Assembly (NCBI GenBank): GCA_963745035.1
Contig: CAVUVW010000026.1
Coordinates: 96,001 to 160,000, forward strand
Length of the DNA: 64,000 bases
Direction: 5' to 3'
Origin: an uncultured delta proteobacterium
GTDB lineage: Bacteria; Desulfobacterota; Binatia; UBA9968
Shown: piece after piece, positions 11,537 through 53,309 of the stretch
How positions within the stretch are numbered: the first letter of the stretch is position 1
Layout: the number at the start of each line of letters is the position of its first letter
Made by a program: the position numbers and the translations under genes
The notes under the pieces: model-generated
Told to the model about the DNA's origin: nothing
Seen by the model: only the letters and a program-made list of their open reading frames with translations
Databases searched by the model: none

Positions 11537-13801
11537 ATGACCATAGGCGTTTCCACCCCGCGCATCGACGGCATCGAAAAGGTAACGGGCGCGGCCAAGT
11601 TCACCGGCGATATCGCGCTTCCCGGCCTGCTCGAGGCAAGAGTCCTCCGCAGCCCCTTGCCGCATGCGGCGATCGAAGCGATCGACATCCGCAAAGCCGA
11701 AGCACTGGCGGGCGTTGTCGCGGTGCTGACGCGCGACGATCTCAAGGACATCGATCCTTTTTACGGCAATTGTCTGCGCGACCGGGCGATCGTCGCCATG
11801 GACCGGGTGCGTTTTGTCGGCGAGCCGGTCGCCGTTGTCGCCGCTGAAGACGCGCTGATCGCCGAGGAGGCGCTGGCACTGATCGACGTTCGCTACAAAG
11901 AGCTGCCTTGCGTGGCGGACATCGACGCCGCACGCGCGGAAGGCGCGCCGTTGCTGCATCAAGATGCGGCGGGAGCGGGCGAGTTTCACGACGTCGCCGG
12001 AGTGGGTGAGCGGTTCGGCGGGAATATCTGCCACCGTGAACATTTCGTAAAGGGCGACCCGGCTTCCGCGTTCGCGCAGGCCGACGAGATCGTCGAAGAG
12101 TGCTTCGAGTTTCCGATGGTCTATCAGTACGCCATGGAGCCGCACACGGCCGTCGCGCGCGTGACCGTCGACGGCATCACCTTGTGGAGCACTTCGGCGC
12201 ATCCTTTCCTGGTTCGCTCGGAGCTTGCGCATATGTTTGGTTTGCCGCACGCCAAGGTCGAAGTGATCGTGCCCTTCGTCGGCGGCGCCTACGGCAGCAA
12301 GTCCTATTTCAAAATCGAGCCGCTCGCCGTCGCCATGGCGCGCAAGACCGGCGGCCGGCCGGTGCGCGTGGCGCAGAGCCTCACCGAGGCGATGTTGACG
12401 ACGCGGCGCCACTCGGCGCGCGTGCGCATGAAGACCGGCGTGAAACGCGACGGCACGTTGGTCGCGCGCGAAGCCGAAGTTCTGATGGATACCGGCGCTT
12501 ATGCGGATAACGGCCCGCGCGTCGCCAAGCGCGCGATCAGCCGCATGCTCGGTCCTTACAAGCTCGATCACTGCAAAGTCGAGGTGCTGGCGTTCTATAC
12601 GAACACGGTTCCCGCCGGTTCCATGCGCTCCATCGGCGGGCCGCAGACGATCTGGGCGCTGGAATCGCACATGGACACCATCGCGGCGCGGCTCGATCTC
12701 GATCCGCTGGAATTTCGCATGCGCAGTCTCTTGCGCCGCGGGGAAATCTTAAAGCCGGGCGCGACACCGGTGGATGCCGATCTGTGTCAGGGAGCAAAGG
12801 CGGCCGTCAGACCACTTGAATGGAACGCGGCAAAAGACGGCAAAGGCAAGGGCGCAGGTGTCGCTGTCGGAGTTTCCGATTCCGAAGCGATGCCGGTTTC
12901 GGTTGCGTTGGTGCGCCTGCTCGCCGACGGCAGCGTGATCTTGAGCGCGGGGACAACCGAAGTGGGTCAAGGCGCGCGCACGATTCTCAGCCAGATCGTC
13001 GCGCAGGAATTATCTCTGCCTGTCGAGCAGGTGACCATGAGCGGCACGGATACGAAGTGGACGCCTTTCGACCGCTCCACCGGCGCGAGCCGATCGACGA
13101 CGGTCATGGGCAGCGCCGTCAAAGCCGCGGCTGAAGATTTGCGCCGCCAGTTGATCGATGCCGCCGCGGAAAGTTTCAACGCAAGTGCAACGACGATCAA
13201 GTTGAAAGACGGCGAAGCTCATTCGGCGGACAAGCACTTGCCGTACGGCAAAATCGTCAGCGCTTACTTCGGCATGCCGGGCGGTGAATTGATCGGCCGC
13301 GGCTACATGCGTCCGGGCGCCGGCTTGGGGTCGACGTTTCCATTATTTTGGGAAACAGGCATGGGCGGCGCTGAAATCAAGGTCGACGGCGAGACCGGCG
13401 AAATTCGCTTGGAAAAGTACATGACCGTGGCGGACGTGGGCACGGCGATCAATCCGCAGCAGGCGGAAGGGCAGGATGAAGGCGCGGCCGTTCAGGGATT
13501 CGGCCCGGCGTTGTTCGAGGCGCTGGTTTACGAGCAAGGTCAGCCGCTCAACGCCAATCTGGTCGACTACCGGGTGCCGCGATTCACCGATCTGCCGGAT
13601 CATTTCGAGTCCGCACTGATCGAAAATCACGACGGGCCGGGGCCCTACGGCGCCAAAGGCATGGGCGAGTCCGGCATCGTTTCCGTGGCTCCGGCAATCG
13701 GCAATGCGCTTTATCGCGCGACGGGCGTTCGAATTCGTGAACTGCCTTTGACGCCGGAGCGGGTTTGGCGGGCTCTCAAAGATTCCAAGCGGGCGGAATG
13801 A
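11537..13801 (+). CDS. Xanthine dehydrogenase family molybdopterin-binding large subunit
   Basis: KVTGAAKF, GGAYGSK, DTGAY, EVGQG, GAKGMGE. Confidence 0.9.
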   Translation: MTIGVSTPRIDGIEKVTGAAKFTGDIALPGLLEARVLRSPLPHAAIEAIDIRKAEALAGVVAVLTRDDLKDIDPFYGNCLRDRAIVAMDRVRFVGEPVAVVAAEDALIAEEALALIDVRYKELPCVADIDAARAEGAPLLHQDAAGAGEFHDVAGVGERFGGNICHREHFVKGDPASAFAQADEIVEECFEFPMVYQYAMEPHTAVARVTVDGITLWSTSAHPFLVRSELAHMFGLPHAKVEVIVPFVGGAYGSKSYFKIEPLAVAMARKTGGRPVRVAQSLTEAMLTTRRHSARVRMKTGVKRDGTLVAREAEVLMDTGAYADNGPRVAKRAISRMLGPYKLDHCKVEVLAFYTNTVPAGSMRSIGGPQTIWALESHMDTIAARLDLDPLEFRMRSLLRRGEILKPGATPVDADLCQGAKAAVRPLEWNAAKDGKGKGAGVAVGVSDSEAMPVSVALVRLLADGSVILSAGTTEVGQGARTILSQIVAQELSLPVEQVTMSGTDTKWTPFDRSTGASRSTTVMGSAVKAAAEDLRRQLIDAAAESFNASATTIKLKDGEAHSADKHLPYGKIVSAYFGMPGGELIGRGYMRPGAGLGSTFPLFWETGMGGAEIKVDGETGEIRLEKYMTVADVGTAINPQQAEGQDEGAAVQGFGPALFEALVYEQGQPLNANLVDYRVPRFTDLPDHFESALIENHDGPGPYGAKGMGESGIVSVAPAIGNALYRATGVRIRELPLTPERVWRALKDSKRAE

Positions 13802-16107: not shown

Positions 16108-16132
16108 GCGCATATTGCAAAGGAGGATGGTA

Positions 16133-17083
16133 ATGAAACGAATTGTCGTCTCGCTCGCGGTAATGCTCTGCTTGCTCGGCATGGCTCCATCCAGGAGCGC
16201 GGCAAAGATCATCGTCGGCCTGTCCTCGGTAAACGTCGCTTTCCTGCCGGTCTACGTGACCGAGGCGAAAGGTTTCTTCAAAGACGAGGGACTCGACGTG
16301 TTGTTGGTCCTGTTCAACGCCGGCGCGACCAACTTGCAGGCGCTCGTCGGCGGCGACGTTCACATCATGGGCAGCGCCTTCGTGGAAACCATCGGCGGAC
16401 GCGCCGCCGGGATGGATATCAGGAATTTTTGGGGTATCTCCAATATCATGCCGTTCCAGCTTTATTCGCAGCCGGATTTTAAATCGATGAAGCAGGCCAA
16501 AGGCAAGCGCTTTGCGATCAGCCGGTTCGGGTCGCTTACGGACTTCTTAACGCGATCGAGTTTGCGCCACTTCGGCGTGGACGCCAAGGACGTGACGATT
16601 CTCCAGATCGGCAGCACGCCGGCGCGCTTCGCCGCGCTATCAGCAAAGGGCGTTGACGCATCCCTGGTGTGGTTTCCGGTGACGGAGATCGCCAAAGCGC
16701 AGGGGTACAACAAGCTGCTCGACCTCAAGGAAGTGTTTCCAGAATGGCCGTATGAAACATTCGCCGCGAAGGAGTCGTATCTCAGCAAGGAAAGAGATCA
16801 GGTCACGAAGTTTCTCCGGGCTTACCAGCGCGGCATCAAGTACACCCATGAGAACAAGGCCGACGCGGTGCGGATCATGGGCAAGTATGTGAAGATAGAT
16901 CAGGCCTATGCTCCCGCCGGTTACGACGAGTATCGCGACTCGTTTCCGATGAACGGACAAATCGCCGAAAAAGCCATTCCGGTCGTGATCGAAGAAGAGT
17001 TCCAAGCCGGCAGAATCAAAAGGAAGATTACCCTCGAAGAAATGATTGACCGCTCGTTCATCAAAATGTTAGGGGGAAAGTAA
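16133..17083 (+). CDS. NMT1/SsuA-type ABC substrate-binding protein
   Basis: Signal peptide, KGFFKDEGLDV, AISRFGS. Confidence 0.88.
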   Translation: MKRIVVSLAVMLCLLGMAPSRSAAKIIVGLSSVNVAFLPVYVTEAKGFFKDEGLDVLLVLFNAGATNLQALVGGDVHIMGSAFVETIGGRAAGMDIRNFWGISNIMPFQLYSQPDFKSMKQAKGKRFAISRFGSLTDFLTRSSLRHFGVDAKDVTILQIGSTPARFAALSAKGVDASLVWFPVTEIAKAQGYNKLLDLKEVFPEWPYETFAAKESYLSKERDQVTKFLRAYQRGIKYTHENKADAVRIMGKYVKIDQAYAPAGYDEYRDSFPMNGQIAEKAIPVVIEEEFQAGRIKRKITLEEMIDRSFIKMLGGK

Positions 17084-19413: not shown

Positions 19414-20442
19414 TTAGCGCGAAACTTCCGCGCCCCAAATCTCTTTCAGAAAGCCACTCTTCTCTAGATCCTCAGCGAATCGGTTGTCAATGATATCTCC
19501 GGGCTTGCGCCGCACGTTGGTGCCCTGCTCGCGAACAACTTCGATGGCGCCGGCCACGGTACTCTCGGGCACGAGCAATCGGCGGTTGACCAGCAATTTC
19601 GCGTAGGCGTCGTAAGCCGATTGGAGCGCATCCGCGTCGTTGAGCTTGAGCGCTTTGCTCACCGCTGCTTTGCCTTTCTCCGGATTTTTCTCGACGAATT
19701 GGATCGACTCCGCCAGTGCCGCGACAAACTTTTGTGTCACGGCTGGACGCTCTTTCAACGACTTCGCGTTGGCATGAAGCGAACTGTAAAGCGCCGGCAA
19801 GCCGAGGTCGTTAAGTCGGTAAACGAGGTTGAAGCCGTCGCGCCGGCCGCGCACATCGAGCGGCGGGGTGACCAAGGCCGCTTCGGCCAGGCCCGCGCGC
19901 ATGGCGTTGAACGGCTCGACCTGGCCCGTACCCCCGACAGTGAGAATCTTGACGTCGCTTTCGGTCAAGTTGAATTTCCTGAGCAACGCACGCGCAAGAC
20001 GAAACGTCAGATCGCCGGCGCGCGTGACGGCAATGCTCTTTCCCTTAAGCTCTTCAGGCCTTTTGATATCCTTGCGCGCCAGCATGACCCAGGGCAGGCC
20101 GACGAGCGGCGAAGCGATCAATTTAGCGTCGCTGCCGGAAGCCATACCCGGAATCGTCGCATCCGCCGCGCAGTAGAGATATTGAATCTCGTCGGCAGCC
20201 AAAGCCGCGAGCGCGACGCCGCTGCCGCGGATCGAGACGAATTCAACCTTGACGCCGTACTTATCGAACAGATTGGAGTCGAGAGCGGCGTAGAGGTGAA
20301 TGAAGCCCCCAGTTATGGCGCAGGTCGCCGCGCGGACGGTCGCGACCGCTTCTCCCGGTTTCGACAAATATGGGTTGGCGTACACCGGCCACGACACCGT
20401 GACGGCCGCGCATGCCAACAGGGTGGAAACAAAGCGTCTCAT
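19414..20442 (-). CDS. NMT1/SsuA-type ABC substrate-binding protein
   Basis: Signal peptide, FDKYGVKVE, LKGKSIAVT, ends LEKSGFLKEIW. Confidence 0.88.
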   Translation of the reverse strand: MRRFVSTLLACAAVTVSWPVYANPYLSKPGEAVATVRAATCAITGGFIHLYAALDSNLFDKYGVKVEFVSIRGSGVALAALAADEIQYLYCAADATIPGMASGSDAKLIASPLVGLPWVMLARKDIKRPEELKGKSIAVTRAGDLTFRLARALLRKFNLTESDVKILTVGGTGQVEPFNAMRAGLAEAALVTPPLDVRGRRDGFNLVYRLNDLGLPALYSSLHANAKSLKERPAVTQKFVAALAESIQFVEKNPEKGKAAVSKALKLNDADALQSAYDAYAKLLVNRRLLVPESTVAGAIEVVREQGTNVRRKPGDIIDNRFAEDLEKSGFLKEIWGAEVSR

Positions 20443-20594
20443 AATTCGTTCCCCCTTCCGCGCCTGCGATACAACCGTTGGTTCTGAGTTGTCAACCTCG
20501 GAGAGGCTGTACTAGAGTGGCGCCGTGGGAAAAACAAATAGCGGAACAATTTCGCACGCGGTGCTGCCGTCGATCTGAAAGGCGGTGTTTCGTG

Positions 20595-21572
20595 ATGGTT
20601 CCAACCTTATACAGTTTGGTATTTCTGCTGAGTGTCATCTTCTTGTCGGCGCCGCCGGCGGCGGCGCAATCGCTCAAAGTCGGCATGACTTCGAAGACGC
20701 TCTTTTACCTGCCGTTCTACGTCGGGCTCAAGAAAGGCTTCTACGCGGCGGAAAACTTGAAGACGGAGTTGATTCTCATCGGCCGGAGCGACGTTCAGCT
20801 TCAGGCGTTGATCGCGGGCGAGATCGATTTCGGCACGCTCAACGCCGACGGTGTGATCCTGGTCAACGAGAAAGGCGCCAATCTCAAGGTCATCGCCGGC
20901 GTCGACAACGCCGCTCCGTATATTTTGGTCGGCGGCAAAGCATACAAAAAGATCGAGGATCTCAAAGGCGCGCGCTTGGGCGTGTCCGGATTGCGCGGGG
21001 GCGCGACTTCCATTTTGACGGATTATCTGAAGAGCAGGGGCCTGCACTATCCGCGGGACTATACTTTCACGGTTATTTCCGGCGGCACTGCGGCGCGGCT
21101 GACGGCGCTCGAGAGCGGCGCGATCGCGGCAGGCATACTCGGCATTCCATATTCGGACATCGCTATCGATCAGGGCTTCAACAAGCTGGGCGACACCATG
21201 GAAGTGATCTCGACCTATCAGTTCAACGGCATCACCGTGAATCCGGCGTGGGCGGAGAAGAATCGCGCGACAGTCGTCAAGTTTCTCAAGGCGCACATCC
21301 GCTCGCTGCGCTGGATCCATGAGCAACCGCAGCAGGCCGCGGAATTTTTTACCGCGGAGATGGGCGTCAAGCCTCCCTATGCGCGCAAGGGCATCGACTA
21401 CTTTACGAAGAACAAGATTTTTCCCGTCGATGGCGCGGTGACCCTCGATGGACTCAAGGTCAACATCGAAGTCCAATTTCGCGACGGTATCCTGAAGGAA
21501 CCGCTGCCGGCGCCGGAAAAATACGCCGATCAGAGTTACGTCAAGCAGGCGCAGAAGGAACTCGGATTGTAG
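20595..21572 (+). CDS. NMT1/SsuA-type ABC substrate-binding protein
   Basis: Signal peptide, KGFYAAENL, DLKGARLGVS. Confidence 0.88.
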   Translation: MVPTLYSLVFLLSVIFLSAPPAAAQSLKVGMTSKTLFYLPFYVGLKKGFYAAENLKTELILIGRSDVQLQALIAGEIDFGTLNADGVILVNEKGANLKVIAGVDNAAPYILVGGKAYKKIEDLKGARLGVSGLRGGATSILTDYLKSRGLHYPRDYTFTVISGGTAARLTALESGAIAAGILGIPYSDIAIDQGFNKLGDTMEVISTYQFNGITVNPAWAEKNRATVVKFLKAHIRSLRWIHEQPQQAAEFFTAEMGVKPPYARKGIDYFTKNKIFPVDGAVTLDGLKVNIEVQFRDGILKEPLPAPEKYADQSYVKQAQKELGL

Positions 21573-21618: not shown

Positions 21619-21733
21619 ACGGAACAAGTCCCAGAGGTACCCAGGGGTGGAATCTGATTGACGGCAGGTGGGGTGCTTTGTTATCCGATCAAAGGATAGA
21701 ATTCTTGTCGCGCAACGGGAGCCTTCAACGAAT

Positions 21734-22747
21734 ATGAGTCACCATAGTGTGTTAGCTGTTTTCCTTTTCCTCGGCATAGCGCTTTTTTCTCTCAACGCTG
21801 AAGCTCAGCCCAGGTCAAAAATCGTTATCGGTTACGCCTCGATGAGCTCGGTGGTGACCACGCTCTGGATAGCGCAGGAGAAAGGCTTCTTTGCCAAAAA
21901 CGGCCTGGACGTGCAGTCTATATTTATTCCGGGGTCGCCGACGTTGATTGCCACGCTTAACACCGGCGACGTGCATTTAGGTTACACCGGCGGCACGGCA
22001 ACACTGGGAGCCGCGGTCGGCGGACTCGATCTGAAAATCGTCGCGTCCTTCGGTAATTTCGTTCAAACCGATTTGGTGGTTCGGCCGGACATCAAAACCG
22101 CGGCGGATCTCAAAGGAAAGCGCATCGGCGTTACCAGTATCGGAGGAACTGGCTGGATGTCGGCAATGTTGGGCCTGGAGCAGATCGGTTTGAATCCGGA
22201 GCGCGACAAAATCTCGATTGCCGCTTTCGGCGATCAAAGAGTCATTAGCCAGGCTCTGGAATCGGGAACGATCCAAGGCGCTTCGATTTCCGGAATCTTC
22301 AGTCGAAAGTTGAAAAGGGCCGGCTTCAATTTCTTGGGCGATCTGGAAAAGATTCCGCTGGTCGGCACCAGCCTGGTCGTGAAGTCCGAGTATCTGGCCA
22401 GCCATCAACCCATCGTGCGCGGCGCTGTTCGAGCGCTCATGGAAGGCCACGGGTTTGTGTTGAATCCGGCGAACAAGGCGACGGTGATCGAAGTCGTAAG
22501 CAAGAAACTCGGCATTACCGATCCGGTGGCCGCTAACGATGGTTATGACGATTACGTGCGGCGCACCGACAAGAAAGGCTTTGTCGTCGTCGACGGACTG
22601 AAAAATATTCAGCGCTTCATGAAACTGCGCAATCCAAAGATCGGCGATATCAATCTGGAACGGATGATCGACGAAAGTATTTTGCGAGAGTTGGAAAAGA
22701 GTGGATTTCTTGAACAGGCGATGAGCGGCAAAACCACCGTTCGCTGA
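21734..22747 (+). CDS. NMT1/SsuA-type ABC substrate-binding protein
   Basis: KGFFAKNGLDV, DLKGKRIGVTSIGGT, LEKSGF. Confidence 0.88.
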   Translation: MSHHSVLAVFLFLGIALFSLNAEAQPRSKIVIGYASMSSVVTTLWIAQEKGFFAKNGLDVQSIFIPGSPTLIATLNTGDVHLGYTGGTATLGAAVGGLDLKIVASFGNFVQTDLVVRPDIKTAADLKGKRIGVTSIGGTGWMSAMLGLEQIGLNPERDKISIAAFGDQRVISQALESGTIQGASISGIFSRKLKRAGFNFLGDLEKIPLVGTSLVVKSEYLASHQPIVRGAVRALMEGHGFVLNPANKATVIEVVSKKLGITDPVAANDGYDDYVRRTDKKGFVVVDGLKNIQRFMKLRNPKIGDINLERMIDESILRELEKSGFLEQAMSGKTTVR

Positions 22748-22762: not shown

Positions 22763-23854
22763 ATGGCCATCGACGGCATGAAAGTGATCGATCTGGACAG
22801 TCATCTGGTGGGCGATTTGGAGAGTTGGCATCAAACGGTCGAAGCGAAGTACAAGGATTTTTGCCGCGCAAGCTGCCGACCAAGGATAACGAGCGGCGCA
22901 AGACTCTGGTCGGCAATCAGATCATGGTCGGTTCCGAGCTTGGCCGGCAAAAGGCGGAAAAGAAGGAGTGGGTCACCGAAGCCGACCTCACGCCGCAGGG
23001 GCGGGTGCGCAATATGAATCTCGATGGCATCGACGTCGCGGTGCTTGTCGCCCAACTCGCCGGCGCTCGATATACTCTGGTTCGCGGACGATGCGGAGCT
23101 CGGCGCGGCCTACGCGCGGGCGCAAAACAATTACATGAATTGGTACTCCTCGCAGCAGCCCGGCCGCCTCATGTGGGCGGGCGTGATTCCGCTGCAAGAC
23201 CCAAAGGAAGCGATCAAAGAGCTGCACCGATCGCGCGAGCTCGGCAGCAAAGCGCTCAATGTGAAGGCGACGCCGATCCCGGGAAAGGAATGGTGGGACC
23301 CGCACTTCGATCCGATCTTCGATGAGCTCGAGAAAACCAAGACGCCGATCATTTTTCACGACACCAAGACCGGCTCCATGGGACATGAGCGTTTCGCCGA
23401 TAATTTTTTCTTCTCGCACATGGTCGGGCGCACCATCGAGAGCATGGTTTGCCTGATGGTTTACCTTTGCGGCGGCGTGATGGAAAAGCACCCGAATTTG
23501 AAAATCATCTGCCTCGAGACCGGCGCATCGCAAATGCCCTGGTGGCTGTCGCGCATGGACGAGCACTGGGAAAAGCTGCCGCATCTGGTTCCCTGGCAGA
23601 AGCGCAAGCCATCGGATATTTTCAACGAAAGCGTGTACGTCGGCTGCGAGCCATTCGAAGACGGCCTGTTCGAATGGGCGGTGGAATATTTGGGCGGCGA
23701 CCGGCTCGTGCTGGCGACCGATTCGCCGCATTGGGATTCCTCTCAGCCGGGGCAAGTGACCGGACCGATCTCGCAGAGCACGAAAATTTCGCAGGAAAAT
23801 AAGCGGAAGGTGCTCGGCGAGAACGCGATCAATCTTTTGGGCTTGGGTTTGTGA
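22763..23854 (+). CDS. Amidohydrolase_2 family protein (frameshifts ~22860, ~23045)
   Basis: Three ORF pieces join: IDLDSH...DGIDVAVL...ATDSPHWD...VLGENA; AGGAGG RBS. Confidence 0.82.
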
Positions 23855-23922
23855 GATTTCAGCGACAAGGAAAGCTTCGCTCGGAAGCGTATCGTATTTC
23901 GGCTCCAATGAGAGGAGACGTT

Positions 23923-24936
23923 ATGAGTTGGTTACTAGCGGCTGCTCTTGCGGTTGTGAGTTTGCTTGCGCACTCCAGCACTTCTCACGCCGCCAGCGCC
24001 GGCCGCACCGTAGTCATCGCGCATGCGGCGATGAACGCCCGGGTGGCGCCGCTATGGGTGGCGCGCGACCGCGGGTTTTTTGCTAAGTATGGAGTGAACG
24101 CTGACACGATCTTCGTGCGCGGGGCGCCGACGCTGGTCGCCGCCATGCAGTCCAATGAGATCGACGTTGGCTACACGGGCGGAACGGCCGTCGTCGGAGC
24201 AGTCGCCAACGGCGCCGATCTGAAAGTCCTCTCCGCGTTCACCAATCGCGTGACCTACGACCTGATGGTCAAGCCTGGCATTAAACGGCCGGAGGATTTG
24301 CGCGGCAAAATATTCGGCATTCAAAGCATTGGCGGCACCGTATGGATGGGCGCCATTCTTGCTCTGGAGCATCTGAAGCTCGACGCAGATCGCGACAAGA
24401 TCAATATTATCGCAGTCGGCGACCAAAACGTATTAGCTCAAGCGCTGGAAGCGGGGACCATCGATGCGACCGTGCTCGACGGCGTGCAAAGCCGCCGCTT
24501 GAGCGCGCTGGGATTTGCGACGCTTGCGGATTTGAACAAGGCAAATTTGCCGATCCTGAGCTCCGGCTTCGTCATGAGAGAGCCCAACATTCAAAAGAAT
24601 CCGCAGCTCGCGGAGAACCTGATGAAAGCCGTTATCGAAGGTGCGGTGTTTTCGCTTTCGCAATCACAAAAACCCACAACGTTGAAGATCTTGCAAAAAT
24701 ATCTTCGAGTTACCGAAAAGGACGCGGAAGAAGGTTATCGCGACCTGGTGATTGGGACGGACAAGAAGCCTTATGCCGCGGCCGCGGGCGTTACGAACGT
24801 CGTTCGCCTGATGAAGCGAGGCAATCCGAAAGTTGAAAACGTTAAACCGGAAACGCTGATCGACGATCGCATTTTGAAAAAAATCGATCAGAGCGGTTTT
24901 ATCGATGAGGTGTTGGCAAAGTACGGAGTGAAATAG
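23923..24936 (+). CDS. NMT1/SsuA-type ABC substrate-binding protein
   Basis: RGFFAKYGV, DLRGKIFGIQSIGGT; close paralog of 21734-22747. Confidence 0.88.
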   Translation: MSWLLAAALAVVSLLAHSSTSHAASAGRTVVIAHAAMNARVAPLWVARDRGFFAKYGVNADTIFVRGAPTLVAAMQSNEIDVGYTGGTAVVGAVANGADLKVLSAFTNRVTYDLMVKPGIKRPEDLRGKIFGIQSIGGTVWMGAILALEHLKLDADRDKINIIAVGDQNVLAQALEAGTIDATVLDGVQSRRLSALGFATLADLNKANLPILSSGFVMREPNIQKNPQLAENLMKAVIEGAVFSLSQSQKPTTLKILQKYLRVTEKDAEEGYRDLVIGTDKKPYAAAAGVTNVVRLMKRGNPKVENVKPETLIDDRILKKIDQSGFIDEVLAKYGVK

Positions 24937-28927: not shown

Positions 28928-31222
28928 ATGAACGAGAAGCACAGTTATTCGATTGCGGGAACCAATGCGCCCAGGGTCGACGGCGTCGAAAAAGTAACCG
29001 GCAAAGCGATCTATACGGGCGATATCCAGCTTCCGGGGATGGCGCATGCGCGTATACTGCGCAGCCCCGTCGCTCACGCGAAAATCGTTAAAGTCGACGC
29101 GACAAAGGCGAAGGAGCTTCCGGGCGTTATCGCGACCCTGACGCGCGATGATATCCAAGTGTTCAATTACAAGTACGGCGCGACATATAAAGATCAGTCG
29201 ATCGTTGCAGTCGATAAGGTCCGCTACGTCGGCGATCCGGTGGCCGCGGTACTGGCCGATGATCCGCCACGGCGGAACAGGCTCTGGAGTTGATCGAAGT
29301 CGAGTACGAAGAACTGGCCGAAAGTAACCAACATCGAAGAGGCTACCGCGCCGGGAGCCGTTCTCGTTCACGAAGCGGGCGTGGCGCGCGCCGAGCTGCG
29401 CGGCTCGGTTTACGGCGCGCCGGAGCGATTCAACGGTACCAACATTTGCTATTACCTCACCTTCGGGCGCGAGGATGTGGAAAAAGGCTTTGCCAAGGCC
29501 GATCAGATTTTTGAAGACACGTTCCGCTTTCAAAAAGTTCAGCACTATTCGCTCGAAGCGCACAACAATATCGCCTACTACGACGGCGAGAAGCTCACAG
29601 TCTGGGCGTCCTGCCAGGACCCGTTCACTCTGCGCGATCATCTCTCCGGCATATTTCGTCTGCCGCTCAGCCGCATAAGAGTTATCGTCCCGTACGTCGG
29701 CGGCGGCTACGGCGGCAAGCTCTACGTCAAAGCGGAGCCAATTTCGGCGGCGCTGTCGTGGATGACACGCAGGCCGGTAAAGCTTCAGCTATCGATCAAC
29801 GAAAGCTTCAAGACCGTCACGCGCCATCCGGCGCGCGTCACGGTGAAAACCGGGGTCACGAAGGACGGCAGGCTGATCGCGCGCGAGTGCCAGGTCTACA
29901 TGGACACCGGCGCTTACGCGGACGCCGGTCCGCGCGTGACGCAGAAAGCGGCTTATCGAGCTCTAGGCCCTTATAGGATTCCGTACGCTAAAGTCGAAGC
30001 TTACGGTGTTTACAGCAACACCGTCCCGGCGGGTGCTTTTCGCGGTTTCGGCGCGCTGCAAGTCACTTGGGCTTACGAATCACAGATGGACATGATCGCC
30101 GATCGGCTCGGCATCGATCCGCTGGAATTCCGCATCAAGAATCTACTCAAGAAGGGCGACATCTACACGAAGGGTGACACCCCCGTGGATTGCGATCTGG
30201 AAGAGGGACTGTTGAAAGTCGCCGACGCGATCAAGTGGAAGGAAAATTCCAGCAAGCCCAATCGCGCCAAAGGCATCAGCTGCTGCATCAAGGACGCCGG
30301 CGGAACTTACAAAGTTGCGGGGGCCACGGTCAAAATGTCATCCGATGGCAGCATCGTCTTGCTCACCGGCACGGTTGAAATCGGTCAGGGACCGCGCACG
30401 GCATTGAGCCAAGTCGTTTCGGAAGAACTCACAGTAGGCATGGAGCAAATCACCGTTGCCCAACTCGATACCGACGTGACGCCCTACGACATCTCCACCA
30501 GCGCCAGCAGTTCGATGGTGGTCATGGGGACTGCGGTGCTGCGAGCGGCGCAAGACGCGCGCAAGCAGTTGCTGCAGTGCGCCTCCAAGGTGCTGAAACA
30601 AAAAGTTGAAAACCTGAAACTTCACAACGGTCACGTCGTCTTTGGCGAGAGCGCGCCTATTTCCTTTAGCAAAGTGATCGTTGATTTCTTCGGCAGCAAG
30701 GCCGGAGAAATTATCGGTAAAGGACTTTACCAAGATAAAAAGAACCCCAAGGCCGTATTGGGGTCGACAACGACATTCTGGGAGGTGGGGTGGGGTGGTG
30801 TCGAGATCGAAGTCGATCCAGACACGGGTATGGTTCGGGTTCTGAATTACGTTTCTGCTTGCGATACCGGCAAGGCGATCAATCCGGAGCAGTGCATCGG
30901 CCAAGACGAAGGCGCCGTCTTATTCGGCATCGGCCACACTTTAATGGAAGAAATGGTTTACGAGGACGGCCAGCTTTTGAACGGCAATCTGGTCGACTAT
31001 CGCGTCCCAAGATTCGACGATGCGCCGGAACATCTCCACACGATTCTCATCGAGAACGGCAATGGTCCAGGTCCGTTCGGCTCCAAAGGCATCGGCGAGG
31101 GAGGCCTGTTGCCGGTCGCCTCCGCGGTCGCCAACGCGGTTGCGCGCGCGGTCGGCGTGCGCATTCAGGAATTGCCGCTCACCCCGCCGAAGATCTGGCA
31201 GGCGTTGCAACGAAAACAATAG
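28928..31222 (+). CDS. Xanthine dehydrogenase family Mo-binding large subunit (frameshifts ~29265, ~29320)
   Basis: KVTGKAIY, GGGYGGK, AFRGFG, EIGQG, GSKGIGE; paralog of 11537-13801. Confidence 0.87.
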
Positions 31223-32440: not shown

Positions 32441-32469
32441 TTGACATTGATTTAGCCGCGCGATACAAA
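32441..32469 (+). promoter_or_regulatory. Sigma-70 promoter of the pyr operon
   Basis: TTGACA, 17-bp spacer, TACAAA. Confidence 0.7.
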
Positions 32470-32478
32470 AATAGCAGT

Positions 32479-32513
32479 AACCTTTTAATCCGATCCTGTG
32501 AGGTCGGAAAAGG
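32479..32513 (+). ncRNA. PyrR-binding site (anti-antiterminator)
   Basis: CCTTTTAA-TCCGA-TCCTGTGAGG-TCGGA-AAAGG matches the PyrR element consensus (CUUUAA / UCCNGNGAGG). Confidence 0.88.
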
Positions 32514-32548
32514 AGTTATGAAGCTGATTTCGGAAATTATTAGCGCTC

Positions 32549-32586
32549 AAAGACCCTCTCGGTGATTCCGGAGGGTCTTTTTTTAT
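32549..32586 (+). terminator. Attenuator terminator of the pyr leader
   Basis: AAAGACCCTC..GAGGGTCTTT followed by a T tract just before the pyrR ATG. Confidence 0.85.
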
Positions 32587-32588
32587 CT

Positions 32589-33146
32589 ATGGCTGACAAG
32601 CAGCAAGTCGTCCTGGAACAGGCGGATCTTGGCAAGGCTATCCGGCGGATGGCGCACGAGATCTTGGAAAAGTGCGCCGACCCGACGGAGCTGGTCTTGA
32701 TCGGCATCCGTTCGCGCGGTGCCTATCTTGCTCGCCGGCTGGCGCGAACGATTGAGGAAATCGGGAAGTCTAGTCCTCTGGTCACGGCGATCGACGTGTC
32801 GGCGTTTCGCGACGATCGGGCCGTAACGCAGGAAAATTTATCTGGCGGCGTCTTCGAAACTGAACCCGTAGTCGAGGACAAGACCATCGTCCTGATCGAT
32901 GACGTGATTTATCGCGGTCGCACGATTCGAGCCGCGATGGAGGCGGTCGAGCGTCTCGGCCAACCGAAACGAATTCTCGTGGCGGCCTTGATCGATCGCG
33001 GTTCACGCGAGTTGCCAATACGCGCCGATATCGTCGGAAAAAATATCGACGTCGCGGAAGGTCAACGGGTCAACGTTCGGCTGGTGGAGGCCGATGGGAT
33101 CGATCAGGTGTTTTTGGTCGATTGGCGTGATCGTCGCGCTGTTTAG
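32589..33146 (+). CDS. pyrR: Pyrimidine attenuation protein PyrR / UPRTase
   Basis: RRMAHEILEK, GIRSRG, FRDD, VLIDDVIYRGRT, DRGSRELPIRAD.VGK. Confidence 0.92.
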   Translation: MADKQQVVLEQADLGKAIRRMAHEILEKCADPTELVLIGIRSRGAYLARRLARTIEEIGKSSPLVTAIDVSAFRDDRAVTQENLSGGVFETEPVVEDKTIVLIDDVIYRGRTIRAAMEAVERLGQPKRILVAALIDRGSRELPIRADIVGKNIDVAEGQRVNVRLVEADGIDQVFLVDWRDRRAV

Positions 33147-33162
33147 CGAAAAATAAAAAGAC

Positions 33163-35109
33163 ATGCGTAATCTGATTTCCATCGGCGATTTGACCAACGA
33201 AGAGATCGAGGAAATCTTTTCTCTGGCCGATGGCGCCGACGAATTGCGCGCGGAGAGACGCGCGAGCGGCGAGATCATGGCGACGCTGTTTTATGAGCCG
33301 AGCACGCGGACGCGATTATCATTCGAATCGGCGATGCAACGGCTTGGGGGCTCGGTGATCAGTTGCTCGGACATGAAGTCATCATCGACGGTCAAAGGCG
33401 AAACTGTCGCGGATACCGCGCGGGTCGTTTCGAGCTACGCGGATGTCTTGGTCGTACGCCACAACTGGGATGGGGCCGTGCAAGCGATGGCGGAGCACGC
33501 CGACGTGCCTGTGATCAACGCCGGCGACGGCAGCCACGAGCATCCGACGCAAACGCTTTGCGATCTCTACACCTTGCGCAAGGAGAAGGGCGAAATCAAA
33601 GGATTGACCGTCGTGGTGTGCGGCGATTTGAAGAACGGCCGCACGATTCACTCCCTGGTTTACGCGCTGGCGCGGTTCGGCGCCAACGTGGTGACGTTGG
33701 CCGCCAACGGCATGGCCTTGCCGCAGTATGTGATCGACCGCTTGGAGCGCGAATACGATTATGCCCTCGCTCCGGTGGGATCGGATGATCTAAACGCCGT
33801 CGTCACTGAAACTGATGCCTTATATCTCACGCCGAAGCAGCCGCATCAGCTGGCGCTTTACACGCAAGTCGACCAGGTCATTCAAGCGCGCCTCAACACC
33901 ATGGCCACCGGGCTGCGTTACGACGCCTTCTATATGACGCGAAAACAAAAGGAGCGCATGAAGGAAGGCACCACGGACGTGAGCTATCCGACCATCGGCG
34001 CCAATTTTCTGCGCGAGCAGCGTTTTCAAGATACCGTGGTGATGCATCCGCTGCCGCGTGTCGATGAGCTTTCACCGGAGGTCGATAAGGACCGGCGCGG
34101 CATTTACTTCAAGCAAGCCGCCTACGGCGTACCGGTGCGCATGGCGTTACTCAAGTTCCTCCTCGACCGGCGCGCCGAAAAGCACAACGCGTCAAAGGAC
34201 GCTACCGTCTTATATCAAAGTCCCGAGCCGATCGCGCCGCAATGCCGTAATCCCAATTGCGTGACGGTGAGAGAGCCGATTTCGAGCAGTAGGCGCTTTG
34301 AGATTGTGTCGCCCGGAAAAGCCACAACGTTGATTTTGGCCTGCGCCTATTGCGACCATCGCTTCAAGGTACAAATTGTCGGCAATGTAAAATCCAAGAA
34401 ATATTACGCATTCGATAGCTCGCTCATGTCGACGTTTCGTGCCTGGCTCAAGAAGGACGAGCTTGCGCTCTTTGATTCGATCAAAGTAGCGGAAGACTTG
34501 GGTTACGAGCCGTTCAAAAGCGGCCCCCAGAGAGTGCTCATGAGCGAAAGCGATATTCATGCTGCGCTGGTGAATATGGCCGGTCAGATCCTGGGCGATT
34601 TCCAGGAACCGAGCCGTTTGCTGATTTTGGGCGTGCGCGGCGCAGGTTCCCAGCTCGCGCAGAGATTGGCTAACGAGATCGCACAACAAGCGAAGCTGAA
34701 GCCCGAAGTCGGCGAGATCGAAATTTATGGCTCGGGAGATGATCTGAGAAGACTTTCCGCAGACGACCCTGATGCCGGACCATTGAACCTGAGGAACCGC
34801 GAAGTCATTCTGGTCGACGACGTCATATTCAGCGGTAGGACGGTCAAGAGCGCATTGAGCATCATCTTTCGCTCGGCCCGGCCGCAATCGGTGCGGTTGG
34901 CGGTCTTGATCGACCGCGGGCATCGGGAAGTTCCGGTAAAACCGAATTACGTGGGTAAACATATTCCAAGCTCGGAATCGGACCGGGTGCGGGTCAAGCT
35001 TCGCGAGATCGAACCCGGAGGGCCCGATCAGGCAGTGATCTATACGATCATGAATCCAGGCGAGCAAGCGAGTAGGCCCGCGCGCAGCGTGGAAATGACA
35101 AGCAAGTAG
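33163..35109 (+). CDS. pyrB: Aspartate carbamoyltransferase fused to a PyrI-type Zn domain and a PyrR-like PRTase domain
   Basis: aa 1-334 [26 protein letters not shown]; aa 361-397 CRNPNC..CAYC; aa ~456-635 [21 protein letters not shown]; one open frame. Confidence 0.9.
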
Positions 35110-35113
35110 CGAG

Positions 35114-36280
35114 ATGAAAGCGATCCTAGCACTGGCCGACGGGCGAGTTTTCGAAGGAGCGTCATTCGGCGCCGAAGGCGAGGCGATCGGCGAAGTGGTG
35201 TTCAACACCAGCATGACGGGATATCAGGAGATTCTCACCGATCCGTCCTACGAAGGGCAGCTCGTCGCGATGACTTATCCGGAGATCGGCAACGTCGGGG
35301 TCAATCCGGAAGACGTGGAATCGCGCAAACCGTTCGTCAACGGCTTCATCGTCAAGAATTACACGGCGCAGCCGAGCAATTGGCGCGCCGCCCAATCGTT
35401 GCACGAATACATGAAGGCGCACGGCATCGTCGGCATTCAAGGCATCGATACCCGCTCGCTGGTGCGCTACCTGCGCGATCAGGGTTCGCAAGAAGGCATT
35501 ATCTCGACGGTCACGGAGAACGTCGATGAGCTGATTGCTAAAGCCAAGAGATCCCCCGGCATGGTTGGCAAAGATCTGGTGCAAGAAGTCACCTGCGACG
35601 AGTCGTTCGATTGGAATCAAGGGATGTGGGACATCGGCACGGGCTACAAGACTCGGGATGGCGCGAAAGCCGCGCCGAAGCGCAAGGGCAGGGGAACCTT
35701 CGGCTCGCCTAATTTTTTCGTGGTCGCGTACGACTACGGCATCAAATACAACATTTTGCGCAATCTCGCCGAAGCCGGATGCCGGGTGAAGGTCGTGCCT
35801 GCGGCGACTTCAGCAGAAGATGTTTTGGCGCTCAATTCCGACGGGATTTTTCTCTCGAACGGTCCCGGCGATCCCGACGCCGTGCCCTATGCCAAAGAAA
35901 ACGTGCGCAAGCTCATCGGCAAGAAACCGATCTTCGGGATTTGTCTCGGCCATCAGATCATGGGGCTCGCGCTCGGCGGCAAAACCTACAAGCTCAAGTT
36001 CGGGCACCATGGCGGCAATCAGCCGGTGATGGATTTGACCACGCGCAAAGTCGAGATCACCTCGCAGAATCACGGGTTCGCGGTGGATGCCGATTCGCTC
36101 AAGGGCGCGGCTGAAGTGACCCATTTGAACCTGAACGACAATACCGTCGAAGGTTTGGCGCATCGTGAGCTGCCGATCTTCTCCGTGCAGTATCATCCGG
36201 AGTCCTCGCCCGGACCGCATGATGCGAGCTATCTTTTCAAGCGTTTCATCGACATGATGGCGAAACATCGAGGCAAGTAG
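35114..36280 (+). CDS. carA: Carbamoyl-phosphate synthase small subunit
   Basis: [33 protein letters not shown]. Confidence 0.97.
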
Positions 36281-36286
36281 CGACCC

Positions 36287-39523
<3,237 letters not shown>

Positions 39524-52045: not shown

Positions 52046-53047
52046 TTAGCGATACAGCGCCTCGATAAAATCGCTGGACTGCAACTGTCGGATAAATCGG
52101 TCGTCAAAAAACTTATGCGGATCGAGATCCTTCGCTTTGGGATTTCTGTCTGACAGCTCTTCCAAGACCGAACGAACACCCTCGGCGGTCGTGAGCGGCG
52201 TCTTCATCATGTATTTGGCGATCTGCACGTCGTAGGATTCCGTAAGCAAATCGTTATCCGTGGTGCGTAGATACTTCGATAGGACTTTCATTGTGAATGC
52301 CCGGTCTTTTTTCATCAGGGCGATGCCTTCGACTTGCGCGGTGAGATAACGTCGGACCAGATCCGGGTCGTCGCGGATTAGATCGCCGCGCGTCGACACC
52401 CCTGTCGATGCATACGGAATGTTGAGCGTGGGAATGTGCAGCAGCACGCGATTGCCTAGTTTCACTGCGCGGCTCGTCGCCGGATACCCGAAAACGCCTG
52501 CTTGCACGCGATTTCCTTGCATCGCGCCGACGATCCACTCGCCGGCGCCGATCTCGACGATGTGAACGTCTTTCCCCGGTTCGAGTCCGAGATGCTTTGC
52601 TGCCAGACGTGCGCCGGTGTGAAGTGAAGTGCCGAAGCGGCTGATACCGATGCTCTTCCCGCGCAGTTGCTCGGCTTTGTCGATCTCGGGGCGAACCACG
52701 AGATTCTGCACCAAGGTTCCGACGGTGGTTGCGACGATCTTCAGATCGGCGCCGCCCACCGCCGCCCCGGTGGTCGTGCCGCCGGCGATCTGCAGAAACG
52801 AAACTTCACCGGCAATCAGAGCGTTGGTCCCCTGAATCCCGCTCGGCGTTGCGATGACTTCGACCTGCAAACCATGTTTTTTGAAGATCCCCGCTTCATG
52901 AGCTGCCCATGGTGGCGCCATCGTGCCGGAGATCGATGTGACCGCGACGCGAATTTTTCGCAGCGATGAAACTTCGGCGGCCTCGGTGAGCGAGCTTATG
53001 TAGAATAACCCGATAGCGAAGAATCCAACGATCAGCCATTGTTTCAT
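52046..53047 (-). CDS. NMT1/SsuA-type ABC substrate-binding protein
   Basis: Signal peptide, GIFKKHGLQVE, LRGKSIGISRFG. Confidence 0.88.
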   Translation of the reverse strand: MKQWLIVGFFAIGLFYISSLTEAAEVSSLRKIRVAVTSISGTMAPPWAAHEAGIFKKHGLQVEVIATPSGIQGTNALIAGEVSFLQIAGGTTTGAAVGGADLKIVATTVGTLVQNLVVRPEIDKAEQLRGKSIGISRFGTSLHTGARLAAKHLGLEPGKDVHIVEIGAGEWIVGAMQGNRVQAGVFGYPATSRAVKLGNRVLLHIPTLNIPYASTGVSTRGDLIRDDPDLVRRYLTAQVEGIALMKKDRAFTMKVLSKYLRTTDNDLLTESYDVQIAKYMMKTPLTTAEGVRSVLEELSDRNPKAKDLDPHKFFDDRFIRQLQSSDFIEALYR

Positions 53048-53309
53048 CGTTTGCCTCCTTACAAACACCGCGTATGCCACTGATAGCTGAGAGCATTGCA
53101 GCGAGTCAAATAAGATTCCGCGTAAACAGCTCCCTCTCGCGCCGACGATATAACAGAACGTAAGATCATTGCAGTTTTCCAACAACAGCGTTGCGTTTCG
53201 AATTATCGCCGTGGTAAGCGGGGAGCATGAGCTGGAGTATTTTCTGACGGGGCGCGGTAGTCACGGAAGAGAAGACCGAAACAGTTGTTGCCACAAAGGA
53301 GGTAATGCC

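Follow-up and report, generated by a model that had tools for sequence, protein, structure and literature searches.

A putative pyrimidine operon of the order pyrR-pyrB'-carA-carB lies on the forward strand of the window, which is the whole analysed stretch of 64,000 nucleotides (positions 96,001 to 160,000 of contig CAVUVW010000026.1, assembly GCA_963745035.1) from an uncultured delta proteobacterium of the Binatia. The locus is constructed from a leader RNA, a gene for a free PyrR and a fused gene, pyrB', whose product joins an aspartate carbamoyltransferase (ATCase) catalytic part, a PyrI_C-type zinc domain and a second PyrR-derived domain, termed PyrR' hereafter. The two PyrR copies had been recognized correctly in a preliminary description of this DNA, in which the zinc domain between the ATCase and PyrR' was overlooked. 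The reading favoured here, with a probability of roughly 0.55, is that two anciently diverged PyrR paralogs encoded in one operon would read the nucleotide pool at two levels. The features of the locus, in coordinates of the window, are as follows.

32441..32469, forward strand: promoter read from the sequence, with the -35 box TTGACA at 32441-32446, a spacer of 17 nt and the -10 box TACAAA at 32464-32469
32479..32513, forward strand: PyrR-binding hairpin (CCUUUUAA..GAUCCUGUGAGGUC..AAAAGG), with a match to Rfam family RF00515 and covariation
32518..32565, forward strand: leader open reading frame (ORF) of 15 codons plus stop, encoding MKLISEIISAQRPSR, whose TGA stop is formed by the first bases of the terminator loop
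32551..32584, forward strand: intrinsic terminator with arms of 12 nt, the loop UGAUU and then seven U; hairpin energy -18.7 kcal/mol
32589..33146, forward strand: free pyrR, 185 aa, identified by matches to PyrR in the Protein Data Bank (PDB) and to NCBIfam NF003549 and by its RNA-face residues
33163..35109, forward strand: fused ATCase-zinc-PyrR' gene, 648 aa
33163..34170, forward strand: ATCase catalytic part, residues 1-336 (OTCace_N E 4e-50, OTCace E 4e-20)
33811..33915, forward strand: insertion into the aspartate domain, about 35 aa long (residues 217-251), apparently a degenerate repeat of the strand and loop start that lie ahead of the 240s-loop region
34225..34392, forward strand: zinc domain of the PyrI_C type, residues 355-410, recognized by Pfam PF02748 at 31.1-34.2 bits (gathering score 23.4; match at 360-404)
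34393..34527, forward strand: strongly conserved strand-helix-strand-helix connector, residues 411-455, including W428
34528..35052, forward strand: PyrR' domain, residues 456-630, with the PyrR fold, the phosphoribosyl loop and DRGHRE kept and the RNA face and YRDD loop lost
35114..36280, forward strand: carA
36287..39523, forward strand: carB

The last two genes were assigned as a pair by the NCBIfam profiles TIGR01368 and NF003671, and their order is kept in related loci; downstream of them in the window, recG was recognized by NCBIfam profiles.

The arrangement is by no means confined to the window. A database search with residues 340-648 of the fused protein as the query gave 466 related proteins at E<=1e-3 among 5319 candidates, and among the 120 listed matches the full-length relatives (about 640-665 aa) possess the same domain set, while the fused relatives are named merely 'aspartate carbamoyltransferase catalytic subunit'. 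A protein atlas look-up with the same residues returned no usable match. Scanning of one genome per species led to 58 loci, every one of them from a metagenome-assembled genome, which carry the NCBI-rank labels Binatota (25), 'Deltaproteobacteria' (11), Myxococcota (9), Thermodesulfobacteriota (9), Verrucomicrobiota (3) and Chloroflexota (1), as given by the submitters. In 56 of the 58 loci the free pyrR immediately precedes the fused gene, with carA and carB behind it, and the remaining two loci are cut off upstream; a single reading frame holds both the ATCase and PyrR' in 57 of 58. The pyrR and fused-gene arrangement is ancient. Across 52 loci, the mean identity to the window amounts to 82% for the ATCase part, 62% for PyrR', 59% for the free PyrR and 57% for the zinc domain with the connector; PyrR' is as conserved as the free PyrR and is therefore under selection rather than decaying. 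One locus (L023), in which the free pyrR, carA and carB are fragmented and of lower identity, represents either a low-quality assembly or a decaying locus.

The Pfam domains of the fused protein follow each other in the order OTCace_N, OTCace, PyrI_C and Pribosyltran (residues 468-601). The catalytic part scores 294.6 bits with TIGR00670 (cut-off 237), and STRTR, HPTQ, TRxQKER and HPLPR, which we take to be the carbamoyl phosphate- and aspartate-binding motifs by assignment from E. coli, show no change in any of the 72 family sequences. Its best PDB relatives are the enzymes of M. jannaschii (2rgw, 5.5e-74), P. abyssi (2.3e-72) and E. coli (about 1e-62), all of which are ATCases partnered by PyrI, and Foldseek likewise placed the catalytic part nearest to such enzymes. 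The insertion in the aspartate domain looks like a degenerate repeat because residues 204-225 and 252-334 both align to one part of the P. abyssi ATCase (target about 221-230); the insertion is a conserved feature of the family that even the distant P0164 shares.

Behind the catalytic part, the four zinc-domain cysteines Cys361, Cys366, Cys394 and Cys397 are likewise invariant in 72 of 72 sequences. In E. coli-type ATCase, the PyrI zinc domain is the element that docks the regulatory chain onto the catalytic chain. The PyrI allosteric domain was not detected by Pfam in the 648-aa protein, nor in residues 330-461 even at E 10, and the connector of 45 residues gave no Pfam family match even at E 10, despite being modelled with a predicted local distance difference test (pLDDT) score of 83-89 in the C-terminal model.

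The protein does not belong to the PyrB-PyrI fusion family NF009916, whose cut-off is 800 bits; its score there is 89.9 bits and stems from the catalytic part alone. Two apparently stand-alone zinc-PyrR' chains, P0143 (313 aa) and P0122 (327 aa), are fragments whose first residues (MAL(I/L)..) belong to the C-terminal helix of the ATCase, and P0139, a further candidate for a split form, is a fragment without its N-terminal half; these three candidates thus gave no evidence of a split form, no search aimed at shorter homologs having been made. One distant group of the fused family, represented by P0139 and P0143, carries SGWT instead of TGRT in the phosphate loop.

Both PyrR copies of the window are clearly recognizable as such. 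For the free protein, the matches to solved PyrR structures reach E 2.8e-42 (1non) and 3.2e-38 (1a3c), and NF003549 gives 184.8 bits (cut-off 138). Its start was placed at ATG 32589, the GTG at 32562 offered by the ORF listing being rejected as it lies within the terminator, and the free PyrR reference sequences used began at 32592, without Met1. PyrR' matches solved PyrR proteins at E 5e-33 (1.1e-31 for 1a3c of B. subtilis) and NF003549 at 150.0 bits against the same cut-off. The C-terminal module was modelled with a pLDDT of 82.6 and a predicted template modelling (pTM) score of 0.76, and Foldseek gave TM scores of 0.83-0.94 to PyrR chains.

PyrR of B. subtilis and B. caldolyticus is the attenuation protein of the pyr operon, an RNA-binding protein with weak uracil phosphoribosyltransferase activity. 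Its RNA face is taken here to comprise T18, H22, R27, R141 and R146, together with R19 and K152; the first five of these were reportedly identified through mutagenesis by Savacool and Switzer in 2002. The corresponding positions, together with those of the catalytic loops, were compared in 84 other PyrR proteins, 53 free copies and 56 fused copies, with B. subtilis numbering transferred through the alignment to 1a3c.

R19: in 67 of 84 other PyrR proteins, 53 of 53 free copies and 6 of 56 fused copies
H22: in 45 of 84 others and 51 of 53 free copies; the five commonest residues in fused copies are E (18), R (11), G (8), A (8) and Q (5), without His
R or K at 27: in 45 of 84 others, 51 of 53 free copies and no fused copy, where D (42) and E (12) account for 54 of 56
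R42 (pyrophosphate loop): in 65 of 84 others, 48 of 53 free copies and 0 of 56 fused copies, which have K (22), V (18), N (8), A (4) or Q (4)
R73 (YRDD loop): in 82 of 84 others and 53 of 53 free copies; Gly in 39 of 56 fused copies
H140: in 72 of 84 others, 1 of 53 free copies (otherwise A 30, D 11, S 8, E 3) and 55 of 56 fused copies
R141: in 83 of 84 others, 53 of 53 free copies and 56 of 56 fused copies
R146: R in 50 and K in 3 of 53 free copies; K in 45 and R in 10 of 56 fused copies
D148: in 53 of 53 free copies; N in 55 of 56 fused copies
K152: in 48 of 53 free copies and 55 of 56 fused copies

In the free copies, R73-D74-D75 is complete in 53 of 53, and position 18 is variable, as it likewise is in the 84 other PyrR proteins. 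The fused copies have lost R15, R19, H22 and R27 from helix 1 and changed Y72 to Ser or Ala in 44 of 56 (Ser, Ala, Gly, Thr or Asn in 54), and they keep D105, G111 and T113 as well as Arg or Lys at R112 (55 of 56). The 5-phosphoribosyl loop, numbered D552, D553, G558 and T560 in the fused protein, is invariant in 72 of 72 fused-family sequences. In the window itself, PyrR' has V18, N19, G22 and D27 for T18, R19, H22 and R27 of 1a3c, YGSGDD for LYRDD and K for R146, with DRGHRE kept, and the free PyrR carries the basic helix KAIRRMAHEILEK, PIRAD..GK, and DRGSRE in place of DRGHRE. The residue loss is thus reciprocal, H140 being retained in the fused copies and almost always given up in the free ones. 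Net helix-1 charge averages -1.9 in the fused and -0.5 in the free copies, and owing to this modest difference no claim of an acidic, RNA-mimicking face of PyrR' is made.

The preliminary description had stated that the free copy keeps the basic helix and PIRAD..GK with DRGSRE for DRGHRE, and that the fused copy has lost the helix-1 face and the YRDD loop while retaining DRGHRE and the phosphoribosyl pyrophosphate (PRPP) motif; both statements agree with the window, and the latter extends to the clade. The division of labour that it proposed is borne out clade-wide at the level of sequence. In view of this clade-wide split, it is well supported by the sequences that the free copy binds RNA and the fused copy does not. 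The free protein, with its RNA-face residues kept and a cognate hairpin in front of its gene, is likewise well supported as the RNA-binding attenuation protein of the locus. As regards the fused copy, we infer from the conserved 5-phosphoribosyl loop that it would bind a ligand, and its loop losses suggest that it is probably not a phosphoribosyltransferase.

The leader RNA provides the other half of the system. The promoter, PyrR-binding hairpin and terminator that had been reported ahead of the free pyrR were all recovered in place: the RF00515 model ('PyrR binding site') matches 32477-32586, with both hairpin and terminator inside, with 56.3 bits where the gathering score requires 54 (E-value 4.3e-6 for 6 kb of searched DNA and 9.6e-5 for 133 kb), although the middle stem of the model is matched poorly; beyond this match, no further RF00515 site was found in the 64-kb window. 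In the predicted fold of the leader, a small middle hairpin separates the binding hairpin from a strong stem that runs into seven U; its energy of -41.1 kcal/mol (z -3.75) was equalled by 0 of 200 shuffled sequences. Fifty-four of the related leaders had sufficient upstream sequence, and the hairpin, as CCUUUUAA..GAUCCUGYGAG..AAAGG, occurs in 52 of them, being absent from L008 and L052; RNAalifold assigned it 11 pairs, with compensatory changes in 4. TTGAC stands at a constant distance 5' of the hairpin in 49 of these 52 leaders, and the hexamer 17 nt past it conforms to a TATAAA consensus, position 2 being A in 49 of 49 and position 6 being A instead of T in 45 of 49. A simple consensus scan for promoters and terminators reported neither at the leader, which was counted against the observation. 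In the window, the -10 box has no T at position 6 and the terminator stem is bulged; the sigma-70 scanner misses the promoters of the clade because their -10 consensus ends in A.

Between hairpin and terminator, a short leader ORF is conserved. Its start codon is an ATG located 3-5 nt past the hairpin in 51 of 52 leaders and a GTG in one, its length is 16 codons in 33 of 52, and its stop (TGA in 28, TAA in 18, TAG in 6) was placed automatically within the loop of the terminator for 34 of 52. No stop codon interrupts this frame ahead of the terminator in 51 of 52 leaders, whereas the two alternative frames are open that far in 8 and 35 of 52; the peptide sequences are otherwise not conserved. 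Moreover, the AAAGG of the hairpin 3' arm occupies the Shine-Dalgarno position of this ORF. The conserved frame with its stop in the terminator loop suggests translation-coupled attenuation. At high levels of uridine nucleotides, the free PyrR would bind the hairpin at 32479-32513 and most likely block translation of the leader ORF, the ribosome-binding site being the hairpin 3' arm, upon which the terminator would form and transcription would stop; without bound PyrR, a ribosome on the leader ORF would cover the 5' arm of the terminator and permit read-through. In the window, the hairpin stays intact in the nascent-RNA fold and no antiterminator is predicted. Control of this kind has precedents, since leader-peptide- or translation-linked PyrR control is said to have been described in Thermus ZO5 by Van de Casteele in 1997, and translational repression by PyrR in Mycobacterium smegmatis reportedly by Fields and Switzer in 2007. 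These systems reportedly share with the present one a PyrR site overlapping the ribosome-binding site and a short leader ORF running into the terminator; they differ in organism and sequences, and the mechanism proposed here is drawn from conservation alone. As a separate observation, the ATG of pyrR comes directly after the U-tract without an evident Shine-Dalgarno element, and translation of pyrR may be coupled too.

Compared with Bacillus PyrR (1a3c, 1non), the locus is alike in the fold and NF003549 membership of both copies, the RNA face of the free copy and the RF00515 hairpin. It differs in that H140 is replaced in 52 of 53 free copies, in that a second copy without RNA face and YRDD loop is built into an enzyme, and in that the leader holds a conserved small ORF and, in the window, no predicted antiterminator.

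The role proposed for PyrR', which we rate slightly above even odds, is that of a nucleotide-sensing allosteric module in a new type of ATCase, standing in place of the PyrI allosteric domain. We infer this by analogy with E. coli-type (class B) ATCase, composed of PyrB and PyrI, with which the fused protein shares the catalytic chain and the PyrI_C zinc domain with its four invariant cysteines. It differs from the class B enzyme in lacking the PyrI allosteric domain and having a PyrR-derived domain after the zinc domain instead, in forming a single polypeptide of reversed domain order and in containing the extra insertion in the aspartate domain. The fused PyrB-PyrI proteins of NF009916 ('bifunctional ATCase catalytic subunit / regulatory subunit') offer a precedent for a regulatory chain attached covalently to the catalytic chain. 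Given the PyrI-type zinc domain, the simpler role for PyrR' is that of the enzyme's own regulatory domain. In such an enzyme, PyrR' would retain the 5-phosphoribosyl/nucleotide pocket without binding RNA, the zinc domain would tether it to the catalytic chain, and its dimerisation would probably join two catalytic trimers, similarly to the regulatory-chain dimers of E. coli. The pool of uridine, and perhaps also guanine, nucleotides might hence be sensed on the RNA by one PyrR homolog and on the enzyme by the other.

A number of observations weigh against this interpretation. The order from zinc domain to sensor is the reverse of that in PyrI, where the sensor precedes the zinc domain, so that the resemblance is an analogy and no simple swap. 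The AlphaFold2 (AF2) model of the full-length protein is of moderate quality (pLDDT 73, pTM 0.66) and, with a pLDDT below 50, is unreliable over residues 204-281, where it gives no confident structure. With the whole fused model Foldseek recovered nothing but ATCase catalytic chains, and with the C-terminal model PyrR and hypoxanthine phosphoribosyltransferase (HPRT) chains, no PyrI chain being among the matches listed in either case. The RNA-face residues are assigned by transfer from the reported mutagenesis. On the side of the leader, the RF00515 gathering score was reached by only 11 of 58 loci, an alternative frame is open in 35 of 52 leaders, and in the nascent-RNA folds the 5' arm of the terminator pairs over at least 5 nt with the hairpin region in 15 of 49 leaders. 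The low RF00515 count beside a hairpin present in 52 of 54 leaders indicates that the Rfam model under-detects the attenuators of this clade, and the nascent-RNA folds point to a possible classical antiterminator in part of the clade.

Among the other explanations, one holds that the free PyrR and the ATCase-borne PyrR' form hetero-oligomers, through which the amount or ligand state of the ATCase would titrate the RNA-binding PyrR and couple the enzyme to attenuation. A multimer prediction of the free PyrR with the fused domain, which the preliminary description had proposed as a check, passes in the sense that PyrR' (residues 452-640) with free PyrR scored 0.84 and the best of 3 controls 0.01, a mark reached by 116 of 157 solved complexes and by 2 of 215 mismatched pairs, counts that apply only approximately here, own alignments having been used. 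The runs agreed in at least 93% of contacts with partner pLDDT values of at least 83, and the modelled interface (fused residues 550, 561-569, 575-579 and 588-595; free residues 101, 112-120, 126-130 and 140-146) is the canonical symmetric one of PyrR. PyrR homodimers have been solved, however, and the score may reflect no more than likeness to them, a caution that the prediction tool itself gives; it does not establish binding between these two proteins. The interface itself is paralog-specific, as 10 of its 18 positions are at least 80% conserved within each group with differing residues, compared with 6 of 163 elsewhere (p 3e-8), and, among positions conserved in both groups, 10 of 13 differ at the interface and 6 of 38 elsewhere (Fisher p 1e-4). 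Such fixed differences would be expected of an obligate asymmetric heterodimer, but they fit two insulated homodimers equally well. The adjacency and co-transcription of the two genes in 56 of 58 loci also favour a partnership; this weighs little, however, because pyrR adjoining pyrB is common in ordinary pyr operons. Furthermore, a heterodimer would present only half an RNA-binding face, and sequestration of PyrR by a product of its own operon would amount to positive feedback of no evident benefit. Titration through hetero-oligomers is hence regarded as rather unlikely. A specific form of it is slightly less probable again, in which PyrR' and the free PyrR would swap subunits in a nucleotide-dependent manner, the ATCase holding the attenuator as a silent heterodimer with half an RNA face and freeing it on a change of ligand state; if true, a catalytic enzyme would be a direct post-translational regulator of the RNA switch of its own operon.

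A purely architectural role, in which PyrR' would be a dead enzyme kept for assembly of the ATCase oligomer without ligand sensing, is doubtful to much the same degree as titration. It would account for the losses in the catalytic loops (Gly at R73 in 39, Ser or Ala at Y72 in 44 and replacement of R42 in all 56 fused copies) and for the strong conservation of the dimer-interface residues. A mere scaffold, however, would not need the 5-phosphoribosyl loop and DRGHRE, and their conservation (D552, D553, G558 and T560 in 72 of 72, H140 in 55 of 56 and R141 in 56 of 56), which is as strict as in working PyrR, counts against it.

The opposite view, that PyrR' is an active uracil (or other) phosphoribosyltransferase and the fused protein a bifunctional enzyme of biosynthesis and salvage, appears distinctly improbable, for the main clade has a degraded Arg-Asp-Asp in the flexible loop and does not keep Arg42 of the pyrophosphate loop, despite the intact fold and PRPP motif, the retention in 55 of 56 fused copies of the H140 that the free copies have lost, and the FRDD loop of the distant P0164. 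This member, which also carries DRGHRELPIQ, looks less degenerate than the others. Least probable of all is that PyrR' still binds RNA, in the same leader or another transcript, and makes the ATCase itself an RNA-binding regulator, as R141 (56 of 56), K152 (55 of 56) and the basic residue at 146 (K in 45, R in 10) are set against the loss of R15, R19, H22 and R27 from helix 1, an acidic position 27 in 54 of 56 and a single RF00515 site in the window and in each locus at the gathering score.

As to the origin of the two copies, a local duplication had been put forward for testing by phylogeny. The copies of the window are 34% identical, and a tree of 124 rows was built from 18 of 52 locus pairs (every third locus and the window) and, of the 133 sequences P0138-P0270, the 84 with 165-205 aa. 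The free copies formed one clade with a Shimodaira-Hasegawa-like approximate likelihood ratio (SH-aLRT) support of 100, while the fused domains, joined by three more distant sequences of the fused kind, formed their own clade with a long stem (94). The two clades branch similarly inside and are not sisters, on an unresolved backbone. A recent local duplication is excluded because the copies are only 34% identical and each belongs to its own clade. In a smaller set of 45 rows, which drew on 7 of the 52 locus pairs, 28 of the 84 other PyrR proteins and 3 divergent members of the fused family and from which the long-branch sequences P0243 and P0244 were dropped, forcing the free and fused clades together gave a slightly better likelihood and was not rejected by the approximately unbiased (AU) test (p 0.75). 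An ancient duplication in the stem of the lineage is therefore possible on these trees, as are long-branch effects.

ATCase is a textbook allosteric enzyme, and its known bacterial forms number three, namely trimers alone, enzymes regulated by PyrI and complexes that include a dihydroorotase-like subunit. The last of these, the Pseudomonas-type (class A) ATCase with its inactive dihydroorotase-like subunit, is alike in that a degenerate paralog from the pyrimidine pathway has been recruited as a non-catalytic partner of the ATCase; the present partner differs in being a PyrR paralog, fused rather than separate and with a conserved ligand pocket. Full-text literature searches pairing PyrR with ATCase terms yielded no paper on an ATCase-PyrR fusion, as judged from the search listings. 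An ATCase form with a PyrI zinc adaptor but a PyrR-paralog sensor is widespread and strictly conserved in 58 species-level genomes of an uncultured lineage, and one possible interpretation is a fourth ATCase class, whose allosteric domain would be an exapted RNA-binding attenuator. If it is true, a regulatory module has been rebuilt from the RNA-binding regulator of the same pathway. Meanwhile, the locus offers a natural pair of paralogs that would separate RNA binding from ligand sensing, which is useful for the dissection of PyrR itself.

Elsewhere in the window, two molybdopterin subunits of the xanthine-dehydrogenase family are encoded at 11537-13798 and 29381-31219, the latter of which seems to be missing some 150 residues at its N-terminus when compared with the family models. 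In addition, six paralogous substrate-binding proteins of the SsuA family (aliphatic sulfonate type), none of which reaches the family cut-off, are spread over the 64 kb as follows.

16115-17080: SsuA-family substrate-binding paralog
19417-20442, reverse strand: SsuA-family substrate-binding paralog
20478-21569: SsuA-family substrate-binding paralog
21668-22744: SsuA-family substrate-binding paralog
23851-24933: SsuA-family substrate-binding paralog
52049-53185, reverse strand: SsuA-family substrate-binding paralog

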